Shown here piece by piece: positions 7,220-49,081 of a stretch of DNA of 64,000 nt; within the stretch, counting starts at the first letter, position 1, and every line of letters starts with the position of its first letter. The notes under the pieces are model-generated. The model was not told the origin of the DNA, did not search any database, and saw nothing but the letters and a program-made list of their open reading frames with translations. This DNA comes from a virus (Duplodnaviria; Heunggongvirae; Uroviricota; Caudoviricetes). The position numbers and the translations under genes are program-made. The DNA lies in the IMG/VR virus record IMGVR_UViG_3300004481_001615; one strand, written 5' to 3'.

Positions 7220-8095
7220 CTATATCTCAACGATAATATCTACTCTTTTCATGATTTCTCTTGTGTTATTACGTAGAGAGACTTCTGTCACATCACAACA
7301 TACCGCGAGGTCTTTTTGTGTAAGTTCTGTACCTAAGAGTTTACATGATATATATAGGATAGCTCCCGCAAGTGTCAATGGAGACCTACCTGAACTAGTA
7401 TGATTACTACAAAGTGCTGTATATATCTGTCTGCTGATTAATTCTATATCACCAGACATATTAAACTTCATTACTGCCTTTGATATGAGTAATAAAACAC
7501 GGTTATCTTCTGTTTTAGGTATGATACCAGCATTTCTAAGAGCAAAGTAACAGCTACCGATAATTGTGTGTTGTATCCTCACTTTTTCACAAAAGCCTTT
7601 TAGACTGATGGGTTGGTCATGTATCCTATATGAAGCATAGATTGTTGTGCACAGTGTCGTATAGATTGACCTTCCCCTGACATACCCAGATGAAACAACT
7701 TTACGGTATAGAGAGATTGCCGTCTGACATACAACAGTCGGAATGTTTAAAGAGTCTTTGAGGACGGCAAGAGAACTCAATGCAACACTCATATTGTGAT
7801 TAAGGGAGTTTTGCGCCACTGCCCTATCATTGACCTTCCTCAATCTACCCCACATTATTGCTGTTTCACCCACATCCTTCTTATTGTAACCAATTAGAAC
7901 TTGTGGACGGGGAATTTTTGAGATTGGAGCACCACGATTTTTTGTGTCGTCAGTAACATCCCAGCGTTCAGTTAATGTTGGGAATCTACAAAGAACAAAC
8001 CCACATTTAGTGCACACACACTCTCCTGAACTATCAACCGTAAGCTCTGCCCCGCAGAGTTCACATATGAGATTATCTAAAGAGGTCGTCGACAT
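7220..8095 (-). CDS. tfb: transcription factor B (TFIIB-like)
   Basis: N-terminal Zn ribbon CELCGAELTVDSSGECVCTKCGF followed by a roughly 250-aa helical core. Size is typical of archaeal TFB. The likely true start is the internal M (MSTTSLD) at 8095; the track ORF extends into polB. Confidence 0.65.
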   Translation of the reverse strand: MSTTSLDNLICELCGAELTVDSSGECVCTKCGFVLCRFPTLTERWDVTDDTKNRGAPISKIPRPQVLIGYNKKDVGETAIMWGRLRKVNDRAVAQNSLNHNMSVALSSLAVLKDSLNIPTVVCQTAISLYRKVVSSGYVRGRSIYTTLCTTIYASYRIHDQPISLKGFCEKVRIQHTIIGSCYFALRNAGIIPKTEDNRVLLLISKAVMKFNMSGDIELISRQIYTALCSNHTSSGRSPLTLAGAILYISCKLLGTELTQKDLAVCCDVTEVSLRNNTREIMKRVDIIVEI

Positions 8096-10397
8096 CCTTG
8101 TATCCCTCCACATGGTCCCATGATATACCAACAGAAGCGAGTATGCGCTCGAGTGGTGACCTGAGTGTTCGATTGATAATCCAGTCATAATCTGGAACAA
8201 CCCCACGGGACGTTACTGCACTTTGCTCAAGATAAGACACCCACTCATTATGAGGTAATGAACCTGTGGATTTTGCTTTGAAATACCGGACTAAATCTCC
8301 TGGGATTATTGATTCCCCAATATACATGTTGTTCCATATTGCACCATTGTAATATTCACCAGAGACTTTCTTCTCGGTAAATGGTTGAGAAAGGTTTATA
8401 GGTATTGTAATGTCATCTAATGAATATTTGTTACTTTTTATAGAATCCATTATAGTCTTGATTTTTGTTGTCAACTCTGTGATGTTATCCATCAATATAT
8501 CATCAATCACTTCCTTTTGTAACTTACGGGTAACCTCAGATGTATTACCCCTCACATACTCGAACCCCTTAACTAGGATGTAATCACAGGGTTCTCCTCC
8601 CTCCCTGACAATCCTCTGACCGTAACGCTTTTTAGCTCCCACACCTGTCCCCTTCTTTTCGATAAAGAGTGTTGTCTTTGCGAACCGGTCCTCTTTGATA
8701 TGGAAGCGAGAATCTACTATACCCTTCTCTCCTGCCCAGATAGATAACTCATCATTGACTTCGTCAACAAGATTATCAACCTCATCTGGCTTGCTGTGTA
8801 TTAAGATTGAATCTGTATCACCATAGATTGTCTTGTGTCCTATCTTGAGTGCACGACTCCTTACTCGGTCTAATCCCTCCGCACCCGTTCTCAGAACAAA
8901 ATCTCCTCTCTCTTTGCTGTAGATTCGTGAACCCGAGTAAGCAAAGTATCCCCACGCACCTGAGAGGAAGTGCTTGACAACGGTCTGGGTGAGCTTGACT
9001 GTATTGTACTCTTGCGTACCGGGAGTATGCTTTTTCAGTTCTGCATCCCACTTATCACGTTCCGCTGATAGGTATGAGATTACTGCCGGTGCTAGTTTTC
9101 CCCAGATGTCGGGTGATGTCTCTTTCGGGAATGACAAGAGGATTGATGGGTAGTAACGTGACATGTCTAGTACGGTGATATCTCGATAAATCCCAGCATC
9201 AGGAGTGAAGACAACAGCACCCTCGTCCAGACCACTATCATCCTCAGCAGTTCCACTCATTGGGAGTGTGAACCCGAGTTGATGTGCCATACGCAACCAG
9301 AGCGGGTCATGACGTTTGACATGAGATGTTGTATAGTTGATTGTATGCAGACCAACAAAATTACGCTGAGCCCAGAAGTTACTGATTAAGTCGTATTGTA
9401 TCCATTTACCATCTGTCACTCGTTTAAAACCAGTATCAAGTTTTACACAATACTCAACATCCTTTTTATTGTAGAGGATAAAGTCATCCCGAGTATTCCG
9501 ATTATTATACATTTCTACTTTAAAGAACTCTGATACCATATCCTCTGAATGGAGTATCCCTTCACGAACAACAACCTCTTTAAGCCTGTTGCCCAGTGAG
9601 CCTCTGATTTTTCTATACGCCTCGAGGAGGTCAAAGACCTCACCCGACTCCCCAACGGGGATGTGCTTGTGGAAATTCGAGTTTGCCCACGCCTCTAGGT
9701 AGTTAATATCAAACTCAATATTCCAACCAGTGACAATATCTGGGTTCATATAATTGAGATACTCAATCACCTTACCCAGAAGATGTGTAGGTGTAGGAAC
9801 ATGCATAATAATCCAGTCTGGTAGTGGGTTCATTACAACCTCTTTTATGACTCTATCATCCGCACATATTGTCAAATACCTTTTATGGAAGGAATCAAAG
9901 AACGAAACAGATACAACGGGTGCTGTTGGGTTACGTGCGTTAGGGAATCTACCCTGCGTTTTAACCTCGATATCCATGTAGATGACATGGGGCAGTATTA
10001 CCTTGTTAACGGGTTCAAGTAGATTATAAGGAATAATCCTCGATTGAGAATCGGTCTTAAAGCACGAGAGGATTCCTGTGTCAATTAGGAACCGTTGGAT
10101 GAAATTGATATCCGCCTCATGTGCTGATGTGAACCTACCACGATTATCACGGACTTTTAGTGGGTCAGTTACAACTATTTTCTGGTCGAAGGAACCATCC
10201 ATAAATTTGTACCTATCTGAAATAACCGGTACAACCCATGGTTCTGCTGGTACTGTATCTGACTCGGGAACATACATATAGGGTTCGAAACCCGTGATGT
10301 ATAGGAGTTGTTTTTTGTACTCTTCATCACGTACCCACATATCGATATTCTGGGACGTACCATTGTAGTTTGCTGTGATATATTGGTATGTGGGCAT
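8073..10397 (-). CDS. polB: family B DNA polymerase
   Basis: Exo I YMDIEV, Exo II YNKKDVEY, Pol A DMSRYYPSI and Pol C YGDTDS. 774 aa. Confidence 0.9.
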   Translation of the reverse strand: MPTYQYITANYNGTSQNIDMWVRDEEYKKQLLYITGFEPYMYVPESDTVPAEPWVVPVISDRYKFMDGSFDQKIVVTDPLKVRDNRGRFTSAHEADINFIQRFLIDTGILSCFKTDSQSRIIPYNLLEPVNKVILPHVIYMDIEVKTQGRFPNARNPTAPVVSVSFFDSFHKRYLTICADDRVIKEVVMNPLPDWIIMHVPTPTHLLGKVIEYLNYMNPDIVTGWNIEFDINYLEAWANSNFHKHIPVGESGEVFDLLEAYRKIRGSLGNRLKEVVVREGILHSEDMVSEFFKVEMYNNRNTRDDFILYNKKDVEYCVKLDTGFKRVTDGKWIQYDLISNFWAQRNFVGLHTINYTTSHVKRHDPLWLRMAHQLGFTLPMSGTAEDDSGLDEGAVVFTPDAGIYRDITVLDMSRYYPSILLSFPKETSPDIWGKLAPAVISYLSAERDKWDAELKKHTPGTQEYNTVKLTQTVVKHFLSGAWGYFAYSGSRIYSKERGDFVLRTGAEGLDRVRSRALKIGHKTIYGDTDSILIHSKPDEVDNLVDEVNDELSIWAGEKGIVDSRFHIKEDRFAKTTLFIEKKGTGVGAKKRYGQRIVREGGEPCDYILVKGFEYVRGNTSEVTRKLQKEVIDDILMDNITELTTKIKTIMDSIKSNKYSLDDITIPINLSQPFTEKKVSGEYYNGAIWNNMYIGESIIPGDLVRYFKAKSTGSLPHNEWVSYLEQSAVTSRGVVPDYDWIINRTLRSPLERILASVGISWDHVEGYKDVDDLFR

Positions 10398-10667: not shown

Positions 10668-10810
10668 ATCACCTCCCTATAGTGTGCTGTCACTAAACAG
10701 AAAATCCCACCTATAAGGAGGGCAGACCCTAGACCACCAACAATCAAGATTGATATCGTGATTGCTCCACCACCAGCATACCACAATGTTCTTTTTGTGA
10801 TTTTTACCAT
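10664..10810 (-). CDS. small TM micro-protein (48 aa)
   Basis: Hand-verified codon by codon: MVKITKRTLWYAGGGAITISILIVGGLGSALLIGGIFCLVTAHYREVI. Start overlaps the TPM stop (ATGGTAA) and stop overlaps the next start (ATGA). Confidence 0.35.
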   Translation of the reverse strand: MVKITKRTLWYAGGGAITISILIVGGLGSALLIGGIFCLVTAHYREVI

Positions 10811-11856
10811 TTACCAACGGCACCTCCACCGCCCGACGCTCCACCACCAAAACTCCCGCCACTCGAGTGACCACCACCCGAGTAATCAGAAGAACTCCTA
10901 CTTCTCTCTCGTCGTCTACGTACCTCTTGTTCCCTCTGTCTCTGTCTCTGCCTCTCTTCTTCCTCTTCCCTTTTCTTTCGTAATATCCTATCTTGGACTG
11001 TCTCTATGAGTCTTCGACCGCTAATCGTTTCCATAGTATTCCCACATTTTAGGCATCGCCAATATGATAAGAATAGGAGAGTATACATTGTGCCTATAAG
11101 AACCTCTTTTGTCTTATCTTGGAGAACCTCACCCATCTGTACCTCCCCGCAGTGCTCACAGGACTGCTGACGTCTAGGATTGATGGGAACATCATACTCC
11201 TTTCTACTACTAATGAGTTCGTAGCTATTTTCTATTCTCATATTACCATTATGAATCAATACCAATACGACCGGAGAAGTTATAACAGCAAATCCCAATA
11301 GGTAGGTAAGGGGTTGTACCATCCAACCAAAATCTAAGACTGGCAATACTGGATTGGGATTTGTCTGAGATGGAAAACCAATTTCCTTTGCGAGAGCGAC
11401 TACTGAATTATAGATGCCCTCACCTACCTTACCATCTTTGAGTTTTGGTGTGAGAATATCTCTACCAATCCTACCACACTCTGCGTCAGTGAGCTGACCT
11501 TCTAGACCGTAACCAACCTCAATACCCCACTCTCTTTCTGTCATTGCAATTAAGAGTAAAATACCATTATCTTTATCCGCTTTACCTATACCTGCGACAC
11601 CATCAAGTGGTACATCATTGAAGTATGATAGTTTTGTTTCTTCCATTGTCCTATTACCCATGTTCGTGAGAGTTATACAGACAATCTCCGCTGTTGTATT
11701 TGAATCTACCACAAAAGAGAAATCATCAATCGCCATTTCCCATTCAGAGTCAATGACATCTGCGTTGTCGTAGACATAATGAGGCCTGGTTGAGTTAGTT
11801 ATGGGTAAAGATAGAAGAAATAATATGGTAAGCAATAACCATTTTGATATCTTCAT
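10804..11856 (-). CDS. TPM-domain (TLP18.3/DUF477) protein with a Zn ribbon and a Gly/Arg-rich tail
   Basis: Signal peptide, then GILLLIAMTEREWGIEVGYGLEGQLTD (TPM signature), a CEHCGEV...CLKCGN ribbon and a GGGASGGGG tail. Confidence 0.6.
   Translation of the reverse strand: MKISKWLLLTILFLLSLPITNSTRPHYVYDNADVIDSEWEMAIDDFSFVVDSNTTAEIVCITLTNMGNRTMEETKLSYFNDVPLDGVAGIGKADKDNGILLLIAMTEREWGIEVGYGLEGQLTDAECGRIGRDILTPKLKDGKVGEGIYNSVVALAKEIGFPSQTNPNPVLPVLDFGWMVQPLTYLLGFAVITSPVVLVLIHNGNMRIENSYELISSRKEYDVPINPRRQQSCEHCGEVQMGEVLQDKTKEVLIGTMYTLLFLSYWRCLKCGNTMETISGRRLIETVQDRILRKKREEEEERQRQRQREQEVRRRRERSRSSSDYSGGGHSSGGSFGGGASGGGGAVGKW
10933..10957. repeat. (CTCTGT)n microsatellite encoding the RQRQRQ tract of the TPM protein
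   Basis: Direct hexamer repeats visible in the sequence. Confidence 0.6.
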
Positions 11857-12468
11857 CTAACCTACCACCACGGGTGGGTTTGTCTGAGACTCGTTATTTG
11901 CTTGATAGTTGGGTTTTTGAGACATTCCATTCATACCAGCCACAATACTAGCTGGGAACATCTGGATAGCAGTGTTGTATGATTGAACTGACTCGATGTA
12001 TCGCATACGTGCTACGGCAACACGATTATTCGTTCCTGCTAGTTCATCCATCAATCCAAGTACAATTGTGTCACCATTGAGTTCTGGGTAGTTTTCTGTT
12101 GTGACAATTACGAGGAGACGACCCACAATATTGTCAAGTGCTCCCTGAGCTTCCATCTGTTCTGTCACTGGTTGAGAGAGAGACTTACCCCACTGTGAAC
12201 GTGCCTCTGCTATTGAGGTGAGGAGATTTGTTTCATAGTTGATATAGATTTTTGTGGCATTGACCAGACTTGGAATCAGGTCATATCGACGCTGGTACTG
12301 ATTCTGAACCTCAGACCACTTGGCCTCAACATCCACTTTCTTGGTTATGAGACCATTATAAGTCCCAAAATACCAACCAGCACCAATACCTGCTGTGATT
12401 ATTATACCTACCATGAAACCAATTAGGATTATTTTACCATCCATTTTAGATGCCCTTCTTATTACCAT
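11857..12468 (-). CDS. lemA: LemA family protein
   Basis: N-terminal TM helix and WSEVQNQYQRRYDLIPSLV, which resembles the LemA signature. Paired with a TPM gene, as is typical. Confidence 0.6.
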   Translation of the reverse strand: MVIRRASKMDGKIILIGFMVGIIITAGIGAGWYFGTYNGLITKKVDVEAKWSEVQNQYQRRYDLIPSLVNATKIYINYETNLLTSIAEARSQWGKSLSQPVTEQMEAQGALDNIVGRLLVIVTTENYPELNGDTIVLGLMDELAGTNNRVAVARMRYIESVQSYNTAIQMFPASIVAGMNGMSQKPNYQANNESQTNPPVVVG

Positions 12469-13159
12469 GAGCTATGACTTGCAAACGTGCCGAGAGATTG
12501 AAACCATACTTGACACAATCTTTCCATATTGATGGTAGGAGAGTTATACATCTTTCTGATGTTGTGCATTCTGGCATAAGCCAAACACGGTCTGGTCGTA
12601 TGCCATTGTTTTGGCAGAACACGATAACCTCTTTTGTGTCCTCATCAGTAGCGACAACAAACTTCCAATTAATGTTATACCTGTAATTGTAGTTGTTTAT
12701 CATCATATTGGAATAAAGGAACCAATCTGGGTGAACAGTAGTATCACGAACGACGACATCTTCTTTAGATTGAGAGTTTGAGAGTTTTGGCGAAATGTTG
12801 ATTTCCCAGTGCTTCAATATATCGGGCACCCATTTAAGACCCAATAATGAAATTGTACCGTTTGTTTCCATGGCATACCTAGTTCCACTTGCAGAACCCA
12901 GCATAAAATCCCAGATTTCGCCCTTTTGTAGTAGTGGTTCTCCACCCGTGAAGACAATCATATCACCTGTCTTAAATCCGAGCGAAGAAAGTTTATCTTT
13001 TAGTTCCTGCATGGTATAGTCCGTTCCACCTGACCAGCTGTACTTTGTATCACACCACTTACAAGCTAGGTTACAACCAGCTAATCGAACAAAATAGGCG
13101 ACACGGCCCGTCGATGGACCCTCACCTTGGATTGATTTAAAAACCTCAACTACTTTCAT
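12446..13159 (-). CDS. queE: 7-carboxy-7-deazaguanine synthase (radical SAM)
   Basis: FVRLAGCNLACKWCDTKYSW matches the QueE CxxxCxxCD cluster-binding motif. Confidence 0.7.
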   Translation of the reverse strand: MKVVEVFKSIQGEGPSTGRVAYFVRLAGCNLACKWCDTKYSWSGGTDYTMQELKDKLSSLGFKTGDMIVFTGGEPLLQKGEIWDFMLGSASGTRYAMETNGTISLLGLKWVPDILKHWEINISPKLSNSQSKEDVVVRDTTVHPDWFLYSNMMINNYNYRYNINWKFVVATDEDTKEVIVFCQNNGIRPDRVWLMPECTTSERCITLLPSIWKDCVKYGFNLSARLQVIAHGNKKGI

Positions 13160-13572
13160 ATACTCACTCCCTGATTGTCTCCCTCATAGATTGTAAAGTG
13201 AACACATTCTTCATCTAAATCAAATTTTGTCGCTAGCTCTCTTTTTATGGTCATAGCAATCTCTTCCACACTTGTGTTTTCTATAGATTTGATATCAAGT
13301 ACACATTCATTAGCGACTAAAATTTTGGCCTTTTGCCAGATATGTTCGTGCCTAGTTGGCACTAGAAGTATGTGGTCCCAATTCTCTTTGAAATAGGCTT
13401 TTATCTCGCCTAGGTCGATACAATAACCTGTCTCTTTATCCATAGTCTCATTTGTTATGTCTATTTTTAGTTTTTTAATGAAATATGTATGCCCATGAAG
13501 TCTCCCACACTTGGGATGGCTGGGGATGTAATGAGACAGGTCAATTGTTATTTTATTAAGCTTGAGGAGCAT
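13156..13572 (-). CDS. queD: 6-carboxy-5,6,7,8-tetrahydropterin synthase
   Basis: 138 aa with CGRLHGHTY, the QueD/PTPS CxxxHGH motif. Overlaps queE by 4 nt. Confidence 0.65.
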   Translation of the reverse strand: MLLKLNKITIDLSHYIPSHPKCGRLHGHTYFIKKLKIDITNETMDKETGYCIDLGEIKAYFKENWDHILLVPTRHEHIWQKAKILVANECVLDIKSIENTSVEEIAMTIKRELATKFDLDEECVHFTIYEGDNQGVSI

Positions 13573-16716: not shown

Positions 16717-17069
16717 GGTCTTTCACCCAACTTTTCTTTGATGAGTGTTTTTATATCTTCTAGCAACTGGTCCCTATCACCGGAGAACCTGAGTCTGTTC
16801 TCATCGGGGATGTGAGCAAACTCTGATTCTTTTTTGATTATCATATCTTCGATGTCGTTTATTATCTTCCAGAGTTTTTCGGAAACGTTCGGGTAGAACG
16901 TAGAGTAGAACCTTCTCCACTCCTCATCGGTGTGGTGCGTATTGAACCAGTGCCACATCTCTTTGTCGGAAATGAAGTTATAATGACTCCACTTCGCATA
17001 TCCTCGCATAGCCTCTGTCTCGGCACGGTCTGCTCTGATTCTTTTATCTGAGATAATTACTTCACTCAT
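16713..17069 (-). CDS. hypothetical protein (118 aa)
   Basis: Track ORF with a 4-nt overlap to folE. Confidence 0.4.
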   Translation of the reverse strand: MSEVIISDKRIRADRAETEAMRGYAKWSHYNFISDKEMWHWFNTHHTDEEWRRFYSTFYPNVSEKLWKIINDIEDMIIKKESEFAHIPDENRLRFSGDRDQLLEDIKTLIKEKLGERP

Positions 17070-17695
17070 TTACTATCCGCCACCTTATAGAACTCATCAC
17101 GGAGAGCTGAGTCTGTTCGGAAGGCTCCGAGGAGTGCTGTGTTTGTTGCACCCTCACCATTCTTCACTCCTCTCATACGCATGCACATATGGAGACCCCT
17201 CACTTTGACAGCCACGTGGTCTGTGCATAGAGTCTTTGATAGAAGCTCGGCGAGTTGTGGTGTAAACTCTTCTTGGACGATTGGTTGACGAGCAAATATG
17301 TCGGTAATCCTTATTAACTTTGAGAGACCAACTATCTTACCTTGTGGGATGTACCCAAGTGAGACCCTGTACTCCACTGGAAGGAAGTGATGTGGGCAGA
17401 TTGAAAAGACTGTAAATGGTTCGAGTGCAAGTAAGGCGTCTCTGTTGTGAGGGAAGATAGCTTGTGCATGTTCCTCACATATTTCTATAATTTCGGGTTG
17501 TGGCACAGTGAATCCTAACAACCACTCTGCCATCCGTTTAGGGGTTTCTTTAAAGTTTGGGTCTTTTAAATCAATTCCCAACTCTATAAGGAGACTTGTG
17601 ACATGTTTAGTCACAAGAGAAGAACTTCTATTTGATTTGAATTCCTTTTTTGAACTCATACCATCACCTAACATAAACTTTTCAAGGTTATCCAA
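17066..17695 (-). CDS. folE: GTP cyclohydrolase I
   Basis: SICPHHFLPVEYRVSLGYIPQGKIVGLSKLIRI closely matches the FolE active-site block CEHHLVPF...GYIP...GLSKL. Confidence 0.7.
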   Translation of the reverse strand: MDNLEKFMLGDGMSSKKEFKSNRSSSLVTKHVTSLLIELGIDLKDPNFKETPKRMAEWLLGFTVPQPEIIEICEEHAQAIFPHNRDALLALEPFTVFSICPHHFLPVEYRVSLGYIPQGKIVGLSKLIRITDIFARQPIVQEEFTPQLAELLSKTLCTDHVAVKVRGLHMCMRMRGVKNGEGATNTALLGAFRTDSALRDEFYKVADSK

Positions 17696-18041
17696 CTATA
17701 TCACCATACTTTCCTTTAACTCCGTCGCCTTCACCGACGACGACTGATATATCATTATCGTATTTTATCTTGAGTTTGGTATATAAGTCTTTAGCATACA
17801 TCTCACATGACCATGCAGAATCAATTTTCTTGTAGTCCTCGAGATGTGATGCTACTAGTTCACGGAGGTCGTGGAACTCCACTTGCCTGTCGAGGTCACC
17901 AACCGACATTCTCACTGTCACATCAAAGATATGTTGATGAGGATATCTGAGGTACTGCCTATTTTTTGGCGCATCTCGCCAATGATGGGTTCCTAAGAAT
18001 GGAACCGTAACTTCAATATATGAGGTTATCATTTTAAACAA
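17688..18041 (-). CDS. second PTPS-family (QueD-like) protein
   Basis: 117 aa with His-rich GTHHW...YPHQHIF, compatible with the PTPS Zn triad. Overlaps folE and the GT gene. Confidence 0.4.
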   Translation of the reverse strand: MFKMITSYIEVTVPFLGTHHWRDAPKNRQYLRYPHQHIFDVTVRMSVGDLDRQVEFHDLRELVASHLEDYKKIDSAWSCEMYAKDLYTKLKIKYDNDISVVVGEGDGVKGKYGDIVG

Positions 18042-19173
18042 CTCCCACGATTGAGAGCATTTTTCCGATTACTCTCGTCTTATCGTACCGCTCAGCAAAC
18101 TTATAACAGTTATCTGGATAGAGAGCGTACCTAAATATCTTTTTAGATGCTCCACCCGTTCCGTCTCCAACAGGTGAAAAGAAATATGTTGAGTAGTCTG
18201 CACCATCACCACTTAATGTATCCACGTACGCTAGTCTTTTTGGAACAACTGGAGTACAACCGAGTGCACATGCCTCTAAGACTCCGTAACCAAACGTTTC
18301 TTGTCGGGCAGTTGAGAGTACAACGGTAGATTGTGATAGGATATCATAATATTCTGGTTTTGATAGTCCATATTTTAGTAGTATTCTATCTCTATATGTT
18401 GAATAGAATTCACTGAACCGACGTGCTAGTTCTGGGTCACGGATTTTGGGTATCGACCCAGATGTTATTACTAATTTGATGTAGTGAGCACTTGCTCTGT
18501 TAAAGACATTCGACATAATATTTATCATGTCAACAACACCCTTTTCTGGTGCCAGTCTATGAGGGAACACAACCCATGGGAGCTTACCGAGTGGCGACTT
18601 CCATCTACGGATTTCTTCGAGGTCGAGGGGCAGACCGGTCACGTGGATATTACCATTCTGACGGTCCCAAAATGTTTTACTAAAGAGTACTTTACTCCAC
18701 TCTGAACCAACAAAAATAGCGTCGGCACTGTTACCTATCATCTGTTCGAAGTGTGATGCCCACGGGCGACAACCCGCTTGTGCTAGGAAGTCCCACGGGT
18801 CATAAGAACCAGCGTGCATTACACCACAAATTTTGAATTTAGCATTACTGAGACTTCGGATATAGAAGAGAGACTCAATACCGGGATGCCATAGGTCAGC
18901 GAAGAAGATTGTATCTTCGTCGGTTATCTCACCAACTTTTATTGCTTTTATGAGAGTTTGGATTTGAGATTGAGCAAAGTACGGTCGGGAATGGATGTCG
19001 AGGAATTCACCAGACTCAATCTTTGTTGTGAGTGGTGTGCCATCAACCTGCACGAAATCTACACCGAGGCTGTTGAATACTTGTGGGAAGAAACGGGCCC
19101 AGTCAGCGGTATATCGTTCCTCTAGTGGTTCAAGCGGTACCCAAATTAACATTTTCGTTCTCCTTTTTCTCAT
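18034..19173 (-). CDS. GT-B fold glycosyltransferase (GT4-like)
   Basis: C-terminal ETFGYGVLEACALGCTPVV is an EX7E-type motif. In an operon with folE and the PTPS-like gene. Confidence 0.55.
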   Translation of the reverse strand: MRKRRTKMLIWVPLEPLEERYTADWARFFPQVFNSLGVDFVQVDGTPLTTKIESGEFLDIHSRPYFAQSQIQTLIKAIKVGEITDEDTIFFADLWHPGIESLFYIRSLSNAKFKICGVMHAGSYDPWDFLAQAGCRPWASHFEQMIGNSADAIFVGSEWSKVLFSKTFWDRQNGNIHVTGLPLDLEEIRRWKSPLGKLPWVVFPHRLAPEKGVVDMINIMSNVFNRASAHYIKLVITSGSIPKIRDPELARRFSEFYSTYRDRILLKYGLSKPEYYDILSQSTVVLSTARQETFGYGVLEACALGCTPVVPKRLAYVDTLSGDGADYSTYFFSPVGDGTGGASKKIFRYALYPDNCYKFAERYDKTRVIGKMLSIVGVV

Positions 19174-19892: not shown

Positions 19893-19908
19893 TTTATAAA
19901 TGTTATTA
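19893..19908 (-). promoter_or_regulatory. promoter motif variant (TTTATAAATGTTATTA)
   Basis: Motif family member. Confidence 0.5.
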
Positions 19909-20436
19909 TTCAAATAGATAATTGAGAGTATTGTCTTCTAGTTTCTTTTTAATCCCCTTCCTCTCAAGAAGATGTTTATATCTGTACTCACTGATACCTA
20001 ACATAGGTAGAGCAACCACAACATCTCCTATCTTAGTTATATTATTCATATATGGAAGTATGTCAAGAAGGAAGCGCTCTTTTATTTCCTTATGTAACCA
20101 ACCCTTCCTCCCCACTCTACCATGTGATGTACATGTCCACCTCCAAATATCCTTACTTGCTACAACACTATTACTCTTCTGAATATTTCCTTTCTCTATC
20201 TGACGTGAAACTGTCCCACCATACCATCTATGATACATTTCTACTATATTTCTCTCCTGACAAGCAACAACTATAATAACAGAACTTGAGGACGCGGAGA
20301 CACATCCCTCACCATCAAAAAAACCAGCAAGATATGATTTTTCTAACTCACTTGGTTGTTCTCCGGTCATCCCAGCCAATTCATCATCATTCTCCAGTGA
20401 AGTAGGGCTGGGGAACGGTACCGACATTCTTGGCAC
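19906..20436 (-). CDS. LAGLIDADG homing endonuclease
   Basis: LAGFFDGEGCVS dodecapeptide motif. 176 aa. Confidence 0.55.
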   Translation of the reverse strand: MPRMSVPFPSPTSLENDDELAGMTGEQPSELEKSYLAGFFDGEGCVSASSSSVIIVVACQERNIVEMYHRWYGGTVSRQIEKGNIQKSNSVVASKDIWRWTCTSHGRVGRKGWLHKEIKERFLLDILPYMNNITKIGDVVVALPMLGISEYRYKHLLERKGIKKKLEDNTLNYLFE

Positions 20437-21269
20437 CTATCAAAGAGAACATTCTCTAAGTGACTGCTACGCATTGCTTCTGCGTGGACATCCTGCCACA
20501 CTTCTCTAAGTGGTTTCTGCCAGAGGTTACCGTAGGTGAACGAGACTGTTTTGTCTTTGAAGGGATGGGTATCGTAGAAGAAGCAACAGGGAACAACATC
20601 TCCATTCCACAGGACCGAAACAGATAACCACGGATTTAAGCATGGTCGGTGGGTTTTGAGTTGTGCTGACTCATCACGGGCTCCAACAAAACATTCCTCG
20701 ACTGTACGGACAAGAGAGTTCGGGCGGTCTTTATACCGGTTAAAGACATTCTCGATTTCGTCCTTGTTCTCAGGGAGAACAACACACTGTATGTCCACAA
20801 ACGGACGGTGCTCGAGTTTGAGAAAGGCATCTACATCAGATTGGATGTTCACGAAGATGTTTGGGTCGCTGGGTCTGCGGATTTTATTATACGTCTCTTC
20901 TGTATACGCGTCCATTGAGATTGTCAAGAAGTCTAGTTTTTGGAGTGTTTGAAAGTGCCTTGCCATATTTACGGCATTTGTACTCATACCAACTTTTACA
21001 CCAGCACTGTGGAGTTTATCAATGATGACAGGAAGTTGCGGGTGAAGGGTAGGTTCACCATACCCTTGGAGTTCGACCATATAGGAGGAGTCAAAGTCTC
21101 TTCGGTTGGTCATGAGGTCGATTAAGTTTGGATTGAGGTAGCCCAGTTTGCGTTTCATCCACTCCCTGCCACACATCCAACAGTTAAGCTGGCAGTGGTT
21201 GGTTGTCTCGATTTGATAAACTTCTGGGAGAATGTCGAAGTCAAAGTCTTTGATTCGTATGTTCTTCAT
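20367..21269 (-). CDS. radical SAM enzyme with a C-terminal Cys-rich (SPASM/twitch-like) region
   Basis: HCQLNCWMCG (CxxxCxxC), plus VPCCFFYD...CQEC near the C-terminus. Confidence 0.6.
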   Translation of the reverse strand: MKNIRIKDFDFDILPEVYQIETTNHCQLNCWMCGREWMKRKLGYLNPNLIDLMTNRRDFDSSYMVELQGYGEPTLHPQLPVIIDKLHSAGVKVGMSTNAVNMARHFQTLQKLDFLTISMDAYTEETYNKIRRPSDPNIFVNIQSDVDAFLKLEHRPFVDIQCVVLPENKDEIENVFNRYKDRPNSLVRTVEECFVGARDESAQLKTHRPCLNPWLSVSVLWNGDVVPCCFFYDTHPFKDKTVSFTYGNLWQKPLREVWQDVHAEAMRSSHLENVLFDRCQECRYRSPALLHWRMMMNWLG

Positions 21270-23017: not shown

Positions 23018-23278
23018 TTACACCTTCTTTCCAGAGTAGTGGAACGCTGATACCCACATTGCTAGTGGTGGTAGGTTTGCTATTGCACTTATAGGGTCGT
23101 TTATCATGAAAAAACCGTAGGTGAATAGTGTGCAAGCTATGATGTATGCTAGGCACGTTGTTTTGCTGAAGCTCGTTGTCTGCGTTTTTAGAATGGTAAT
23201 GGCTTGTGGGATACAAAGCAGAGCAATGAGCCATGTGCCTATATTGAAGCTGAGATTGATTAAATCCAGAGTAGTCAC
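23018..23278 (-). CDS. small membrane protein (86 aa)
   Basis: Two or three hydrophobic helices. Start overlaps the stop of 23275..24549 as ATGA. Preferred over the overlapping 22992..23336 frame. Confidence 0.4.
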   Translation of the reverse strand: MTTLDLINLSFNIGTWLIALLCIPQAITILKTQTTSFSKTTCLAYIIACTLFTYGFFMINDPISAIANLPPLAMWVSAFHYSGKKV

Positions 23279-24549
23279 CCAAACAACACATTGTCCATTC
23301 TACCGTACTTTCCGAAACTATATTCTTTGTTGGCATGCTCGAAGTCGTTTTCTTCTACACATCTGAGATACTCGACCATTTGTGCCGTATGTGGGTCAGA
23401 TGTTGCTTTGACAAAGTCGATGTAATCGTCTGGAGAATCAGCGAGAGCATCTAAGCAGTGATAGTATTCTAGCACTTTGTAGAGGTTATGGAGGGCTATC
23501 AACCCGCCTGGTAATGAACCTTCTTTATTGAATTCTTGTGGGGTCGAGATTTGACAGACTGGACAACTACATGGGAGTTTTGATAGGGTAGATTCGTAAG
23601 ATTCACCGAACGCGATTCCTCGAGTGATATTGTAGGGTAGATAATACTTGCGATAACGAGCACCTGTTATTGAAAAAGAGGCAGAGTCAAATGTGAGGTG
23701 ATTGAAGAAACGTTTGGCATAGATGATTATTGGAGCTGTATTTAAACCAGTGGCTAAAAACATATGGACACGTTCTTTCTCGAGCGTCTGAGCATATCCG
23801 AGTACTAATGCAATAGAATCTGGGTCATTTTGGTTTGCACCAAATGCATGACCATCAAATTGTAGGTCTTTCATAGCGTCGGTAAATTTTTCTAGTTCTT
23901 CGAGAGTATAACCATGGATTACCTTTAGTAGTTGGAGTTTATCGGATTGACGACTTCGGTGCATTATCTCGTAGTTTCGTCTGGATATCTTGATTGATTC
24001 GTCAAAGGATTTCTCTGTTGAACGTGTTCCGAACCCACCTGTTCCGAGTTCACCATTTTTAACGGGTGGAGAATCGAGAGTTAATGCTATATCGGCGTTG
24101 TGTTCCTCCCATTTTAGAATGTCAGCGGGATTAGGTTTGACTCCCTGAGACCATACTTGGAAACCACCTGAGTCTGAGACAAATGTGAAGTCCTTTCGTG
24201 GGATGCGATAAAATTCACGGAAGTCGAACTTGTCCATACCATAGAACGCGGAAACCAGTAGAGCATCATATCGGAAGATAGCTGTTTCTGTCCACCAATC
24301 GAGACTGTACCCCTCTGGAGCTTGGATTCCTTCAAATCGGGTAACTGAACCAGGAGCAGGTGTAAACTGTACACGTCTATTTGGATTTATGTTATTGAGT
24401 GCCCAACCAGGCACATATTGAACATTGTTGCGCAGAGAGTGACCTGCTGATGATAAGCCCGACGGAAGTGCAGGAATGTATTTTAAATCGGGTTTCATAC
24501 CGACCTGACTGCCACCTGTTGTTGCCGGAGTATATCTAACATCTCCCAT
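23275..24549 (-). CDS. tRNA-guanine transglycosylase family protein, DpdA-like (candidate 7-deazaguanine DNA transglycosylase)
   Basis: TGT zinc site CSCPVC-x22-H near the C-terminus. About 424 aa. Start revised to the internal ATG at 24549, which is 34 nt downstream of the TATA. Confidence 0.6.
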   Translation of the reverse strand: MGDVRYTPATTGGSQVGMKPDLKYIPALPSGLSSAGHSLRNNVQYVPGWALNNINPNRRVQFTPAPGSVTRFEGIQAPEGYSLDWWTETAIFRYDALLVSAFYGMDKFDFREFYRIPRKDFTFVSDSGGFQVWSQGVKPNPADILKWEEHNADIALTLDSPPVKNGELGTGGFGTRSTEKSFDESIKISRRNYEIMHRSRQSDKLQLLKVIHGYTLEELEKFTDAMKDLQFDGHAFGANQNDPDSIALVLGYAQTLEKERVHMFLATGLNTAPIIIYAKRFFNHLTFDSASFSITGARYRKYYLPYNITRGIAFGESYESTLSKLPCSCPVCQISTPQEFNKEGSLPGGLIALHNLYKVLEYYHCLDALADSPDDYIDFVKATSDPHTAQMVEYLRCVEENDFEHANKEYSFGKYGRMDNVLFG

Positions 24550-24582
24550 GTTGATTGTCAAAAAATAATGGGTAGATATCAT

Positions 24583-35107: not shown

Positions 35108-36331
35108 TTACCAGAGTGCAAGTTCGCCGTTCACTAAACGGTCACAGAAGGTATTAAGATTCTCAAACTCGTATGTGACTATGTTCCTAATCATCTTGTA
35201 GTCTATACCACGAGTACCGTTCACTTGCACGGCAACGTGGGCCGGTTCATTAATGGGCTTACCTATCTGACTGACGAGCCAACAATAAACATCTGCTTCC
35301 TTTTCATCGAGGGTATCATAAATCTCCATGGCTATTTGGAATGCCAGTGCATTATAGATTTTACCAACATGACTCACGGCATTTTTACCTGGAGCGGCCT
35401 CACTTGCCATCGGACGGCAGAGTGGGATTATTCCATTAGCATCGTTACCTCGACCTACCTGACCACTATCACCCGATTCTGCGGAGGTACCGTTGACGGT
35501 CATGAACAAACCATCTATACCTCTCTTTGGATTATCTAGTGCATTGATATTCAATTGACCGAGTTTTATTTTTGTATCTGTCTTGTTGAAGAACCAGTTG
35601 ATGTGTGCTGTGACAATGTCTTTGAGGAATTTTTTGTTTTTCATATAATCATCGACAGATGAAACATACTTATCAACAAATGCTGTGGACATCGTGAGGT
35701 TGAGAATATTAGACTGACGAACCGCCATTAATTTGATGTCCTCACCAAAGTACGGGAAACATGTCTTAAACTCTTTTTTGTTGAGTTCTGCCTCGAGTGA
35801 TTTAACTAGTTCTTCTGTGGGTGTACGAGGATAATAACCAACAACAGCCGAGGTATCGTTTGCTCCGAGATATTTTGTGGTTTTGCGTTTGAAGATATCT
35901 GTAAGGTTTTGGCTACCTCGCTGGACCTCTGAGAAGAACACAACATCATTATCAACATCATTAAATCGGAGATGTGTTTTGAACCATTCTTTACCTGTTG
36001 ATGTGAGTATGTTATTCACCCAGTTGGGTGTTGGACCTGCCGTTGCACGGTCTCCAAGGTAAATCTTTATGGGTTTGATAATACTTCCACCTCCGAACTT
36101 TGGCTCAGAGACCCCAGCGGTAAGGAGGATTTTGTCGAGGTTAAAATGGAGAACCGTATCATACTCTTTACGGTACGCTTTACTCAGGGCGACACTCATA
36201 TTGTCAGCAAGAGCATCACAGATTGTATCGGGATGACCTAACCCTTTTCGTTCTACAATTTCGAAGGGCTTCTTAGCTAGAACTTCATTGGTATTCTGAG
36301 TAACATAAAAAGTCGATTCGTCAATAGTCAT
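35108..36331 (-). CDS. mat: archaeal-type S-adenosylmethionine synthetase
   Basis: EIVERKGLGHPDTICDALAD matches the archaeal MAT (PF01941) signature. 407 aa. Own promoter 24 nt upstream. Confidence 0.75.
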   Translation of the reverse strand: MTIDESTFYVTQNTNEVLAKKPFEIVERKGLGHPDTICDALADNMSVALSKAYRKEYDTVLHFNLDKILLTAGVSEPKFGGGSIIKPIKIYLGDRATAGPTPNWVNNILTSTGKEWFKTHLRFNDVDNDVVFFSEVQRGSQNLTDIFKRKTTKYLGANDTSAVVGYYPRTPTEELVKSLEAELNKKEFKTCFPYFGEDIKLMAVRQSNILNLTMSTAFVDKYVSSVDDYMKNKKFLKDIVTAHINWFFNKTDTKIKLGQLNINALDNPKRGIDGLFMTVNGTSAESGDSGQVGRGNDANGIIPLCRPMASEAAPGKNAVSHVGKIYNALAFQIAMEIYDTLDEKEADVYCWLVSQIGKPINEPAHVAVQVNGTRGIDYKMIRNIVTYEFENLNTFCDRLVNGELALW

Positions 36332-41988: not shown

Positions 41989-42004
41989 TTTATAAATGTT
42001 ATGT
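41989..42004 (-). promoter_or_regulatory. promoter motif variant (TTTATAAATGTTATGT)
   Basis: 34 nt upstream of the ATG at 41955. It is the last motif copy before a 16-kb motif-free stretch. Confidence 0.55.
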
Positions 42005-42952
42005 TATTCCATCTATCAGACCCTTAGCGTAGCCTATCGACCATGACAGGAACATCATATACAACGTAATAAAGAGAACAATAGGGTATGGTAGGTTGTT
42101 TATATCGAACTCATCAACAGTAAACATTGTTTCTGCTATCAAAAAAACAGAAAGGACCAAAAAAGGTAAACTAATAAATGGAATCAATAAAAGGAGTGAA
42201 ATAAATAAGACTGTTGGTATTGCATGCTGAGGGGTAAATATTTTAGTCTTCAGTGCTAATCGTGACCTACTCCAAGCATACCCAAACATCTGCTTCGCAA
42301 ACGCCGTGATTGTTTCTCTCTCTTTATGAACAACCGGTGCTTCTGGGATTGAGTAGAGATTTTTCTTTAAGACATTTCTTATACGATAATTGAGTTCCCA
42401 GTCTTCACAACCACCGATTTTCTCATTGAATCCACCAACTGCTAAGATATCTTTTAATCTATAAGCAGAGTTGAATCCTGGGATGCTCTCGAGTTTTCTC
42501 ACATCACTAAACTGCCTACCATGAGATGAAAACAAACCGATAATTGAATGTATAGCTCTCCCGAGTTTTGTTGTGTAATTCGAACGACAACCAGAAGATA
42601 AACCAGAAGCATCTGGGAGACGCTTAAAATAATCAGAGATTTGAAGGGACCAGTCTGGTGGTACTTCAGTATCAGCGTCTAGAAAGGCTACATACTGACT
42701 TGTCGCATACTTAAGCCCTTCATTACATGCAACTGCCCGCCGTGAACCCTTTGTGGTTGATAATGGTTCTTTGATATATTGGGTCTCATAAAGGTGAGCT
42801 ATATCAATGGTCCTGTCAGTCGAGTGTGCATCAACAACTATGATACTGTTCACTGGTTCAATCTGTTTTAATAAAGAGATTAAGCAGGCCTCGAGATACT
42901 GGCCAGCGTTCTTTGTTGGTATGATAATATCAAGTACTCTTTTGTTCTGCAT
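41999..42952 (-). CDS. GT2 family glycosyltransferase with C-terminal TM helices
   Basis: LDIIIPTKNAG N-terminal motif, FLDADTEVPP DxD, and two TM helices near the C-terminus. Confidence 0.65.
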   Translation of the reverse strand: MQNKRVLDIIIPTKNAGQYLEACLISLLKQIEPVNSIIVVDAHSTDRTIDIAHLYETQYIKEPLSTTKGSRRAVACNEGLKYATSQYVAFLDADTEVPPDWSLQISDYFKRLPDASGLSSGCRSNYTTKLGRAIHSIIGLFSSHGRQFSDVRKLESIPGFNSAYRLKDILAVGGFNEKIGGCEDWELNYRIRNVLKKNLYSIPEAPVVHKERETITAFAKQMFGYAWSRSRLALKTKIFTPQHAIPTVLFISLLLLIPFISLPFLVLSVFLIAETMFTVDEFDINNLPYPIVLFITLYMMFLSWSIGYAKGLIDGIT

Positions 42953-43529
42953 GTATCAACATCGCCCTAACACCACTGAGGCTCATAGCTATAAGCATAA
43001 TACGACCCACATTATTTGCACGCTCATAAAAAACATTTTTTGCATCAAACTCCTCTACAAATGTTAGACTTAAATCAGAGAGCATGTTTTTTACTCGCCG
43101 TCTTGTTAAGGTATGTGGATGACCCCTATACATGGGACGATAAATTGCAGAAGGAAAAACATACGTCCAAAGAACAATCCTTCCTCTACAGATACGCTTT
43201 ATTTCTCTCATCGATTCTTCTGGGTCTTCTGTATGGTCTAAGGAATTGACAACGAGCACGTCTTCGAAAGATTTATCTGGATAAGACATGTCTTCTGCTT
43301 TTCCTAATACAAAGTTTTTACCTAAGTATCTGTAATCAATCGGGTCTAAACCCACTATGTTCTCATCAAATCTCCAAATACCATGGTTACCACAACCAAT
43401 TTCGATAGCAGGATACCTGATATCTCTAAGCCTCAGGAAGTTCATCCAATACTTTTTACTGTGTTGTATACCCCACCGAGTGTCGTCATACAATCTTTCT
43501 CGCTCTTGACTCTTCTCCCAGATAGTCAT
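42930..43529 (-). CDS. class I SAM-dependent methyltransferase
   Basis: EIGCGNHG glycine-rich SAM-binding motif. Confidence 0.45.
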   Translation of the reverse strand: MTIWEKSQERERLYDDTRWGIQHSKKYWMNFLRLRDIRYPAIEIGCGNHGIWRFDENIVGLDPIDYRYLGKNFVLGKAEDMSYPDKSFEDVLVVNSLDHTEDPEESMREIKRICRGRIVLWTYVFPSAIYRPMYRGHPHTLTRRRVKNMLSDLSLTFVEEFDAKNVFYERANNVGRIMLIAMSLSGVRAMLIHAEQKST

Positions 43530-44071
43530 ATTTTCTCACCTACCTTTTCTATAGGGATAATTATATCTGTCTTATTTTTTACCACGCCTGACCATAATAA
43601 GTGCCCCGTTGTTTTACTCACTGCCCACAACCAGTTATGTGGGTCATATGTAGATGTTTTGTTTGCATAGTACATAAAATCTGTAAACCATCCTATATAC
43701 AACATATAATACATAGACACCACAAAACAAGTAAAAAGCAGAATTGTTTGTTTTGTCAATTGTAAATGAACGGACTTTGATAACCATGAAAAAATCATTA
43801 GCATGCATAATAAGGATATCACTACATAAAATCTGGGATAGTCAACACCATCAAATATGCTTACTGTCCCAAATCCCTTCCACATTGTATATATCCATAT
43901 TAGGTCGTAGAAAAAGAATGCTAGCTCCGCTAATATAGACGCCAAGACTAGTCTTAGAATAAATGGTCCCCTTATCTTATAGTATGAAATTAAAAAAACA
44001 AGAAGCAAAGAAGTTACCGTTACCCAATGAAGACCGAACACTCTTATACTAAATATTTCTATCATTGACAC
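43526..44071 (-). CDS. integral membrane protein (181 aa)
   Basis: Several hydrophobic helices, rich in W/Y. Confidence 0.45.
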   Translation of the reverse strand: MSMIEIFSIRVFGLHWVTVTSLLLVFLISYYKIRGPFILRLVLASILAELAFFFYDLIWIYTMWKGFGTVSIFDGVDYPRFYVVISLLCMLMIFSWLSKSVHLQLTKQTILLFTCFVVSMYYMLYIGWFTDFMYYANKTSTYDPHNWLWAVSKTTGHLLWSGVVKNKTDIIIPIEKVGEKI

Positions 44072-44932: not shown

Positions 44933-45131
44933 TCTCCTTAAACTCTTTACATGATTCGGTTGTAAACATCAATAGAGCAATGTTTACAGATTCCTTATTT
45001 GTGCACGTACCAGATATTTCTATCTCTTTGTGCGGTTTAAAGAAGGAACATTTGCCACATATCATTTCGTTCCCCTCACTCGTGAAAGGATAGATATTAA
45101 AATTGTCACTGTATAGAGAAGGAAGTGGCAC
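44913..45131 (-). CDS. small Cys-containing protein (72 aa)
   Basis: Track ORF with CGKCS...C...C. Overlaps both neighbours, so it is uncertain. Confidence 0.25.
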   Translation of the reverse strand: MPLPSLYSDNFNIYPFTSEGNEMICGKCSFFKPHKEIEISGTCTNKESVNIALLMFTTESCKEFKEIVKNGQ

Positions 45132-49078: not shown

Positions 49079-49081
49079 ATT

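Follow-up and report, generated by a model that had tools for sequence, protein, structure and literature searches.

Linkage of a glycosyltransferase family to viral 7-deazaguanine DNA pathway genes suggests an uncharacterised sugar-decorated base

DpdL is the predicted decarboxylase of 7-carboxy-7-deazaguanine (CDG) in phage 7-deazaguanine DNA modification (Cui et al. 2023, PMC10516641). This activity is a prediction even for the founding members of the family, for which heterologous expression failed, and among DpdL phages plain dDG is proven for Cellulophaga phage phiST only (PMC10516641). When the dpdL and dpdA genes of phage ACP17 were placed in E. coli, dDG was not formed, which led the authors to consider that other enzymes may be needed (PMC10516641). 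The DNA of jumbo phage PA5oct resists restriction at G-containing sites, and systems that sense modified G target it (PMC12191111).

Here, we analysed a 64,000-nucleotide stretch (hereafter, the window) of IMG/VR virus record IMGVR_UViG_3300004481_001615, a virus that appears to be of an archaeal type with an archaeal host. The DpdL family is already described; the link of a glycosyltransferase (GT) to the deazaguanine pathway is the new part. Our results suggest that a trio of genes for FolE, a 117-aa protein and a GT belongs to the viral 7-deazaguanine DNA pathway, and the linkage of the GT points to an uncharacterised sugar-decorated base.

The 3 open reading frames were found on the minus strand between positions 17066 and 19173 (Table 1). 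All 3 have strong homologues, which excludes chance reading frames, and the first-pass annotation's reading of the trio as FolE, a PTPS-fold protein of 117 aa and a GT-B glycosyltransferase of the GT4 type was borne out. The genes had also been described as overlapping by 4–8 nt; they are indeed co-directional and tightly packed, but 8-nt overlaps arise only if TTG start codons are used and thus depend on the choice of start. The JGI gene calls use ATG starts for both the 117-aa gene and the GT gene, in which case the GT stop codon TAA (18036–18034) is followed by 1 nt and then by the ATG of the 117-aa gene; the possible ATG start of FolE at 17674 lies 13 nt past the preceding stop. The trio is not a self-contained operon as had been proposed. 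It is part of a seven-gene module, which is contiguous in the closest relative (locus L007) in the order DpdA, radical SAM/SPASM, a 75-aa gene, GT, DpdL, FolE, QueD, a 46-aa gene, and QueE.

Table 1. Positions of the seven module genes in the window, with the supporting matches and motifs
Feature	Coordinates	Strand	Support
QueE, CDG synthase, radical SAM	12446..13159	-	NCBIfam, phrog_2076, CxxxCxxC
QueD, 6-carboxytetrahydropterin synthase	13156..13572	-	PTPS, TIGR03367, CGRLHGH
FolE, GTP cyclohydrolase I; start TTG 17695 or ATG 17674	17066..17695	-	PF01227, phrog_2197
DpdL-family T-fold protein, proposed CDG decarboxylase; JGI start ATG 18032 (114 aa)	17688..18041	-	
GT4-like GT-B glycosyltransferase; JGI start ATG 19152 (372 aa)	18034..19173	-	
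Radical SAM/SPASM enzyme, accessory module member	20367..21269	-	Radical_SAM + SPASM
TGT-superfamily base-exchange enzyme (DpdA-like)	23275..24582	-	DSGGFQ, CxCxxC...H zinc motifs

The identity of FolE was confirmed by its match to the Pfam model GTP_cyclohydroI (E 8.4e-44) and to its PHROG family (6.5e-44), and its translation shows the zinc and active-site motifs CPHH and HMCMRMRG. QueD matched Pfam PTPS (4e-14) and, under the curated cut-off, TIGR03367 (6.8e-14), and the canonical CGRLHGH motif is readable in its translation. QueE matched NCBIfam models at 6e-27 to 1e-19, all under curated cut-offs, and the QueE-like phrog_2076 at 2e-46, with the CxxxCxxC motif present. No SGGxDS PP-loop reading frame of the QueC type was found in the six frames of the window, which covers the 94.8-kb contig except for about 30 kb. 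Thus, of the preQ0/DpdA context proposed in the first-pass annotation, the DpdA part stands, and the preQ0 part falls with the missing QueC.

By sequence criteria, the 117-aa protein is a member of the DpdL family and not a pterin synthase. A fold search revealed a QueD/PTPS-like T-fold, as first supposed, and the protein is also distinct from the QueD encoded nearby: (i) no PF01242 or TIGR match was obtained at E<=0.01; (ii) the catalytic Cys of the QueD motif CxxxHGH is replaced by Leu; and (iii) profile comparison with the window's QueD detected no similarity, the fold alone being common to both. The published DpdL signature LxxxHRHxF appears as L31-R-Y-P-H35-Q-H37-I-F39, with Gln in place of the published Arg; the Leu, both His, and the Phe do not vary in two alignments, one with 10 and one with 73 sequences. 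In an hhalign comparison, the window-led DpdL family profile matched phiST DpdL (CGPG_00067) with a probability of 99.0% (E 2.6e-18), and phrog_17812 is common to the window protein (9.4e-9), phiST DpdL (3.9e-69), and ACP17 DpdL (6.3e-53). The relation between the phiST and window proteins rests on this profile–profile comparison and the common PHROG, as tblastn with the window or ACP17 DpdL failed to reach phiST. The single sequence gave 0 matches in a phmmer search of the PDB and returned only itself from a word-indexed protein database; its homologues were reached via tblastn against cultured phages. The family profile produced spurious weak matches only against PDB sequences. The gene context expected of DpdL, namely DpdA with FolE, QueD, and QueE and without QueC, was found in the window. 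Long DpdL-containing reading frames occur in Bakedbeans (gp176) and MA9V-3 (XQU63047), and their N-termini resemble homing endonucleases or HTH domains.

The radical SAM/SPASM enzyme matched Pfam Radical_SAM (1e-12) and SPASM (4.6e-12); its best PDB match, a weak one (E 9e-5), is the sugar-type dehydrogenase BtrN. Its orthologues adjoin the GT in the closest relative and in one other locus (L008) and are present in 30 of the 80 GT loci described below. In the translation of the TGT-like enzyme, DSGGFQ and LPCSCPVC...LHNLY are readable, and its matches to TIGR00432 (arcTGT, 6e-12), Pfam TGT (3.4e-5), and PDB 1iq8 (7e-5) lie under curated cut-offs. The enzyme is 61% identical to the counterpart neighbouring the module in the closest relative and, in the region around DSGGFQ, locally resembles the proteins that adjoin the GTs of PA5oct and ACP17; this type of TGT-like enzyme is common to the window, PA5oct, ACP17, and BCSR5. 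Assignment to two specific subfamilies failed: for DpdA3, hhalign against phiST CGPG_00065 gave a probability of 1.9%, and for DpdA4 (DUF6610, archaeal viruses), the enzyme has no Pfam PF20314 match.

Such an enzyme might act on tRNA of the host or the virus, placing there a deazaguanine that may be glycosylated and thereby reprogramming translation. Glycosylated queuosine in tRNA shows that a 7-deazaguanine derivative can bear a sugar; moreover, the window enzyme scores best against arcTGT models and an arcTGT structure and is not demonstrably DpdA3 or DpdA4. We nevertheless consider a tRNA target improbable: the scores against tRNA enzymes are far under the family cutoffs, the DNA of PA5oct, in which the same type of TGT-like gene lies beside the GT, resists restriction and contains modified G, and every viral TGT-like enzyme studied acts on DNA (PMC10516641).

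The locus is very probably a DpdL-type module for 7-deazaguanine modification of nucleic acid, because DpdL is accompanied by QueD, QueE, the radical SAM/SPASM enzyme, and DpdA nearby and QueC is missing. The seven-gene module would make a 7-deazaguanine base from GTP and bring it into nucleic acid, with the viral DNA itself as the most likely target. On established knowledge of these families, FolE would convert GTP to dihydroneopterin triphosphate, from which QueD would form 6-carboxytetrahydropterin and QueE would form CDG. DpdL, a zinc-binding QueD-like T-fold, is predicted in the literature to convert CDG to 7-deazaguanine, replacing the QueC step, and the TGT-like DpdA is proposed to swap guanine for the new base. 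The GT may use a nucleotide-sugar as donor and glycosylate the DpdL-derived base, which would be free if this occurs before insertion or in DNA if afterwards, and the radical SAM/SPASM enzyme may modify the sugar or the base further.

The GT has a two-Rossmann-domain GT-B fold with the EX7E motif (E292-TFGYGVL-E300), as the first-pass annotation had recognised; this motif and the diphosphate-binding Arg/Lys pair of the C-terminal domain, R206 and K211, show no variation across 86 sequences. Pfam Glycos_transf_1 matched at 28.1 bits against a cutoff of 26.4. In Foldseek, E drops from 1e-23 to 1e-13 past the family's own members, which sets the family apart from other viral GTs. One 530-aa member (P0373) has an N-terminus that resembles a homing endonuclease or HTH domain. 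The fold matches are generic GT4 enzymes acting on small molecules and lipids; the pteridine glycosyltransferase 5zer ranks 11, after generic GT4 enzymes, and was not retrieved by a sequence search with the family profile. Thus, the test for a specific kinship to BGluT/PgtA-type pteridine glycosyltransferases beyond the general GT4 fold was negative. A generic envelope GT akin to the enzymes of the 42–58 kb island was rejected, as the glycosyltransferases of that island are GT2 and none is a homologue. If the GT instead resembled the T4 enzymes, it would glycosylate hydroxymethyl-pyrimidines in DNA as a separate modification merely adjoining the deazaguanine genes. This is extremely improbable, as generic GT4 enzymes are matched better than enzymes of this kind, only 2 of the 80 GT loci contain a thymidylate-synthase-like hydroxymethylase and the window contains none, and the linkage runs to DpdA and DpdL instead.

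This linkage was assessed in 80 IMG/VR loci that were gathered with the GT alone as query, partners being scored within 10 kb. DpdL was found in 72 of the 80 loci, always on the same strand and within 3 kb in 68 of the 72. A DpdA-type transglycosylase was found in 77/80, FolE in 62/80, QueE in 58/80, QueD in 51/80, and a second radical SAM enzyme in 58/80, and the QueC motif in 0/80. A DpdA profile made from five very divergent sequences detected 4/80 loci and the exact DSGGxQ motif 2/80; clustering of unlabelled neighbours brought out another DpdA type, ~335 aa long (phrog_887, queuine tRNA-ribosyltransferase, 6e-21) in 74/80. These counts are inflated, as the sampled loci include near-duplicates and were chosen by similarity. 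In the reverse direction, the GT was found in 26 of the 33 DpdL-seeded loci that are flanked on each side by at least 5 kb. Among 46 GT-family members gathered independently from cellular genomes and MAGs, a DpdA type was found for 39/46 and DpdL for 31/46, and some of these GT, DpdA, and DpdL loci have no FolE nearby. The GT is rare in cellular genomes (50 loci in 185,579 species genomes) and essentially absent from them outside such modules.

The linkage spans archaeal viruses, jumbo phages, T4-like phages, cyanophages, and prophages, with different surrounding genes. Cultured phages with both GT and DpdL include PA5oct-like phages, ACP17, BCSR5, BUDD, X1, BUCT-ZZ01, and Phosso, in which QueE, FolE, QueD, and the TGT-like gene adjoin. 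A search of open-access literature (PMC, bioRxiv) found no paper that ties a glycosyltransferase to DpdL, DpdA, or deazaguanine DNA. The GT family is a constant, apparently undescribed companion of the viral 7-deazaguanine pathway in hundreds of viruses.

The first-pass annotation had taken FolE, PTPS, and GT as the gene logic of pterin-glycoside biosynthesis, in which FolE and the PTPS-like protein would make a tetrahydropterin that the GT glycosylates to a cofactor or metabolite, as cyanobacterial pteridine glycosyltransferases do. T-fold enzymes bind pterins, but the T-fold protein here is DpdL, with neither the PTPS match nor the catalytic Cys, and the ranking of 5zer and its absence from the profile search count against such a GT. 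The GT also travels with DpdA and QueE, which have no part in that pathway, and is found with DpdA and DpdL where FolE is not nearby. A pterin glycoside is therefore very unlikely, and the gene linkage strongly favours the alternative raised in the same annotation, a sugar that would belong to a 7-deazaguanine.

DpdL phages without the GT also exist (phiST, RHph_I1_18, Ahp1, Bakedbeans, D479, and MA9V-3), so DpdL function does not require it. The module could form plain dDG, as in phiST, with the GT as a co-transcribed passenger that acts on a protein (e.g., DpdA), a glycan on the surface of the virion or host, or a metabolite that serves host takeover. This is consistent with the formation of dDG in phiST via DpdL and DpdA (PMC10516641) and with the generic GT4 fold matches on small-molecule and lipid enzymes. 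It also agrees with the acidity of the family (median pI 5.8; acceptor-domain net charge about -6), which is atypical of DNA-acting enzymes and favours a small-molecule or protein acceptor, and with the lack of an obvious O-acceptor on 7-deazaguanine. By contrast, the steady link to DpdA and DpdL across diverse viruses would be unexpected of a passenger, as would the near-confinement of the family to such modules in cellular genomes, and in E. coli dDG did not arise from ACP17 dpdL and dpdA alone. We therefore regard a passenger as unlikely, and the GT is probably a functional part of the 7-deazaguanine pathway, as judged from gene neighbourhoods.

We somewhat favour the full account of a seven-gene viral module in which the GT would add a sugar to the DpdL-derived base. 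The modified G of PA5oct DNA, the missing dDG in the ACP17 reconstitution, and the lack of the GT in phiST with its plain dDG are consistent with this account. That the product is glycosylated deazaguanine in DNA, as the gene linkage hints, has nearly an even chance. Such a base would shield the genome from restriction. Because 7-deazaguanine has no hydroxyl, O-glycosylation would need an acceptor that is missing from the known pathway, and an unusual linkage would be required, with the sugar bound either to C7 as a C-glycoside or to the 2-amino group as an N-glycoside. The candidate attachment sites are the electron-rich C7 freed by decarboxylation and the 2-amino group, as in huimycin. We know of no precedent for C-glycosylation by a retaining GT4 enzyme. 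It is conceivable, if somewhat doubtful, that many tailed phages and archaeal viruses, including the culturable Pseudomonas jumbo phage PA5oct and Acidovorax phage ACP17, have DNA with glycosylated 7-deazaguanine, a sugar-bearing purine hypermodification to which the DpdA–DpdL–GT trio would be dedicated and which a radical SAM enzyme would often modify further.

To our knowledge, the sugar-bearing DNA bases described so far are all pyrimidines with a hydroxymethyl or hydroxy group. With a sugar on a 7-deazapurine, DNA modification would therefore gain a new chemical class, whose linkage lacks enzymatic precedent in DNA. It would also explain the failed ACP17 reconstitution from dpdL and dpdA alone, identify the modified G of PA5oct, a therapeutic-candidate jumbo phage, and provide new enzymes with which to label nucleic acids and to probe defence systems that depend on modification. 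Several phages that carry the module are in culture, which makes the hypothesis directly testable. Even if the product is plain dDG, the linkage defines a large unannotated GT family (~870 clusters at 50% identity), and DpdL systems are extended to archaeal-type viruses.

Among the known systems, phiST is closest: like the window, it has FolE, QueD, QueE, DpdL, and a TGT-like enzyme without QueC, and the 2 DpdL proteins share the His/His/His, Glu, and LxxxHxHxF features (PMC10516641). Unlike the window, phiST has neither a member of the GT family nor a second radical SAM enzyme; its 259-aa DpdA3 has no relation detectable at the profile level to the 435-aa window enzyme, and the host here is apparently archaeal, unlike that of phiST. 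The pathways of the cyanobacterial pteridine glycosyltransferase (UDP-glucose:tetrahydrobiopterin, 5zer) contain no QueE, DpdL, or DpdA, unlike the window. The T4 alpha- and beta-glucosyltransferases, which act on 5-hydroxymethylcytosine DNA, differ in family, in base (a pyrimidine whose hydroxymethyl is the acceptor), and in gene partners, as the window genes have no linked hydroxymethylase. In animal tRNA, mannosyl- and galactosyl-queuosine carry a sugar added to a 7-deazaguanine derivative within nucleic acid, and the queuosine mannosyltransferase is a GT4-family enzyme; the sugar there goes onto a hydroxyl of the cyclopentenediol side chain, an acceptor that the DpdL product would lack, and the substrate is tRNA, not DNA. 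The huimycin and dapiramicin loci of actinomycetes resemble the window in combining FolE, QueD, and QueE with a glycosyltransferase (PMC7439116; bioRxiv 10.64898/2026.04.15.718813). Unlike the window, huimycin involves QueC (preQ0) and an O-methyltransferase, without DpdL or DpdA, and its product is a free secondary metabolite. HuiG (KALB_4073; PF13439, GT4 N-terminal domain), likened to the window GT by gene logic and PF13439 annotation only, transfers GlcNAc onto the 2-amino group of the huimycin 7-deazapurine (PMC7439116). Therefore, the attachment of a sugar to a 7-deazapurine is enzymatically feasible.

Three closely packed genes of one direction on the minus strand of the window encode FolE, a 117-aa protein, and a GT4-like GT-B glycosyltransferase (GT). 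This arrangement, as described in the first-pass annotation, was confirmed; the 8-nt overlaps among the ORFs hinge on TTG starts, and the ATG starts, which JGI chose when calling the 117-aa gene and the GT, leave spacers of 1 nt and 13 nt. The 117-aa protein had been regarded as a PTPS-family protein distinct from QueD. Its T-fold kinship to QueD holds, but a pterin synthase it is not. According to Cui, Hutinet et al. (NAR 2023, PMC10516641), DpdL is a QueD-like T-fold protein with LxxxHRHxF in place of CxxxHGH, occurs in phages having DpdA, FolE, QueD, and QueE without QueC, and was proposed to convert 7-carboxy-7-deazaguanine (CDG) to 7-deazaguanine by decarboxylation; in phage phiST, 2'-deoxy-7-deazaguanosine (dDG) replaces all G. 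Judged from its sequence, the 117-aa protein is DpdL, because (i) it has the motif L31-RYP-H35-Q-H37-I-F39; (ii) it shares with the DpdL family the invariant residues H19, H35, H37, R52, E55, S78-C79-E80, and E104; (iii) it matches the same PHROG as the DpdLs of phiST and ACP17; and (iv) the profile of the family that it heads matches phiST DpdL (probability 99%, E 2.6e-18). With 8000 proteins or more, this family is very large, and Pfam has no model for it. FolE, QueD, QueE, DpdL, and DpdA constitute a known kind of system; therefore, the PTPS-like gene is already explained. In the family alignment (A3), the invariant Ser-Cys-Glu lies at the position of the substrate-anchoring Ser-x-Glu of QueD, so the Cys lost from CxxxHGH may be functionally replaced from another position; the available text of PMC10516641 makes no mention of this motif.

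Features of the window discussed here
Feature	Position	Strand	Evidence
TFIIB	7220-8206		3.4e-19
Family B DNA polymerase	8073-10397
LemA-family and TPM-domain genes	10804-12468	-	3.5e-44; 3.4e-25
QueE	12446-13159
QueD	13156-13572
FolE, GTP cyclohydrolase I	17066-17695	-	Pfam 8.4e-44
DpdL-family 117-aa protein	17688-18041	-	Family motif, PHROG, profile match
GT	18034-19173	-	Own family (see text)
LAGLIDADG homing-endonuclease ORF	19906-20436	-	Pfam LAGLIDADG_3 4e-5
Radical SAM/SPASM protein	20367-21269
TGT-superfamily protein (DpdA-like), 435 aa	23275-24582		DSGGFQ and CxCxxC...H motifs
Archaeal-type S-adenosylmethionine synthetase	35108-36331		2e-130
Glycan-biosynthesis island	42000-58000	-
B12-binding-like radical SAM (island)	47720-49078
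Radical SAM, weakly QueE-like (island)	51763-52746

In the closest relative, L007, a metagenomic contig of 30 kb, the GT and DpdA are 49% and 61% identical to those of the window, and the gene order is uninterrupted: DpdA, radical SAM/SPASM, a 75-aa gene, GT, DpdL, FolE, QueD, a 46-aa gene, and QueE. In the window, the same seven genes extend over 12 kb and are split by other genes, including the LAGLIDADG ORF, and no QueC-type PP-loop (SGGxDS) was found in any frame. The LAGLIDADG ORF, which separates the radical SAM/SPASM gene from the GT side of the module and shares ~70 nt with the 3' end of that gene, looks like a mobile insertion, because the L007 module is contiguous without it. Annotations also show N-termini resembling homing endonucleases on the DpdLs of phages Bakedbeans and MA9V-3, as fusions, and on one GT (P0373). 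Directly downstream of QueE are a LemA-family gene and a TPM-domain gene with a long Gly/Ser/Arg-rich tail, a membrane-associated pair in a virus.

The GT belongs to a family of its own: a word-indexed search gave 555 relatives, and an exhaustive one gave 868 clusters at 50% identity (E<=1e-30). In Foldseek, a gap of ten orders of magnitude in E-value sets it apart from every other viral GT. To our reading of the searchable literature, it is new that most such systems have this dedicated GT4-like family as a core partner of DpdL and DpdA, and that a second radical SAM often accompanies them. Among 80 IMG/VR loci fetched by GT alone and scanned with profiles over +/-10 kb, DpdL was present in 72 (always on the GT strand, and within 3 kb in 68), one of two DpdA types in 77, FolE in 62, QueE in 58, QueD in 51, a second radical SAM in 58 (SPASM type 30, B12-binding-like 28), and the QueC motif in none, the effective sample being smaller than these counts owing to several near-duplicate loci and ranking by similarity. 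Conversely, when loci were seeded with DpdL and required to have 5 kb or more on each side, 26 of 33 carried GT. In 185,579 species genomes, scanned independently, only 50 GT loci were found; the 46 true family members among them were accompanied by a DpdA type in 39 cases and by DpdL in 31, and many lay in alphaproteobacterial regions that look like prophages. GT is also found in 18/23 DpdL-positive records of cultured phages (7/12 lineages). By tblastn, the 117-aa protein had weak, consistent matches in cultured phages, namely PA5oct-like Pseudomonas jumbo phages, Acidovorax phage ACP17, Burkholderia phage BCSR5, and others, every one adjoining a GT homologue near QueE, QueD, and FolE. Glycosylation of hydroxymethyl-pyrimidines by GT was rejected; thymidylate-synthase-like hydroxymethylases are unlinked to GT (2/80 loci).

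The module varies among loci. Two unrelated radical SAM types alternate in it: a ~450-aa protein with a B12-binding-like N-terminus lies between DpdL and GT in 28/80 loci (e.g., L063:6281-7648; L011, L029, L040, L044), its best NCBIfam match being a PhpK-family P-methyltransferase (3e-10, far below cutoff), and a ~300-aa radical SAM/SPASM protein fills that role in another 30. In two contigs of metagenomic phages that recur in many samples (L009:8271-8843 and L010), a short GT2-type gene directly follows the GT4-like gene and precedes the DpdA type; thus, the sugar that some lineages build may be larger than a monosaccharide. In cultured bacteria, large chromosomal contigs carry GT and a DpdA type, usually with DpdL and often without FolE or QueE nearby (L190, L192, L194, L197, and L199-L204 from Shimia, Pelagibacterium, and Magnetospirillum; L209 from Paenibacillus polymyxa), and may be prophages or islands using host deazaguanine precursors. 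In L209, GT has no recognised partner within 10 kb.

Its TFIIB, archaeal-type S-adenosylmethionine synthetase, and family B polymerase identify the element as a virus of archaeal type. The best genomic matches to GT are on contigs assigned by binning to archaea, DPANN among them. The virus supplies its own SAM, which fits its at least 4 radical SAM genes. The glycan island, which encodes two GT2 glycosyltransferases, an NAD-dependent epimerase/dehydratase, and a GHMP kinase, is unrelated in sequence to GT and could supply an unusual nucleotide-sugar. A generic envelope enzyme with homologs in this island is not what GT appears to be: the GT profile matched nothing else in the window, and the island has GT2 enzymes only. 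Pterin-glycoside synthesis by FolE, the PTPS-like protein, and GT, as first envisaged, is very improbable, given that DpdL lacks the catalytic Cys of PTPS and QueD, that the pteridine glucosyltransferase 5zer ranks no higher than 11th among the structural matches to GT and was not retrieved by sequence, and that GT travels with base-exchange enzymes.

By the established roles of their families, FolE, QueD, and QueE would make CDG. DpdL would strip its carboxyl group, as proposed in the literature, the TGT-like enzyme would swap guanine for the DpdL product, and GT would transfer a sugar onto the DpdL-derived base. This sugar transfer is the most likely role of GT, because GT is linked to and pairs exclusively with DpdL rather than QueC, because it is absent from phiST, the only DpdL phage in which plain dDG has been proven, and because dpdL and dpdA of ACP17 alone reportedly gave no dDG (PMC10516641). 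That plain dDG is made and GT acts on something else is somewhat unlikely, since it poorly explains a linkage kept across unrelated virus groups. A tRNA rather than DNA target is distinctly unlikely: the window TGT-like enzyme resembles arcTGT most, but all its scores are far below the family thresholds, and PA5oct, which carries the GT trio, points to DNA, its DNA resisting cleavage at G-containing restriction sites and being attacked by sensors of modified G (PMC12191111).

The acidity of the GT family (median pI 5.8) makes DNA a less likely substrate for glycosylation than the free base, prior to its insertion. The acceptor may be created by DpdL, because GT never travels with QueC; the freed C7, for example, would require C-glycosylation, for which we know of no precedent in this enzyme class. 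The sugar could be tailored by the radical SAM/SPASM partner, which among solved structures matches the sugar-type dehydrogenase BtrN best, though weakly. The GT linkage implies a derivative of 7-deazaguanine that is as yet uncharacterised and probably bears a sugar. Direct glycosylation of a 7-deazapurine has a precedent in huimycin, in which the glycosyltransferase HuiG (Pfam PF13439, GT4 N-terminal domain) adds GlcNAc to the 2-amino group (PMC7439116).
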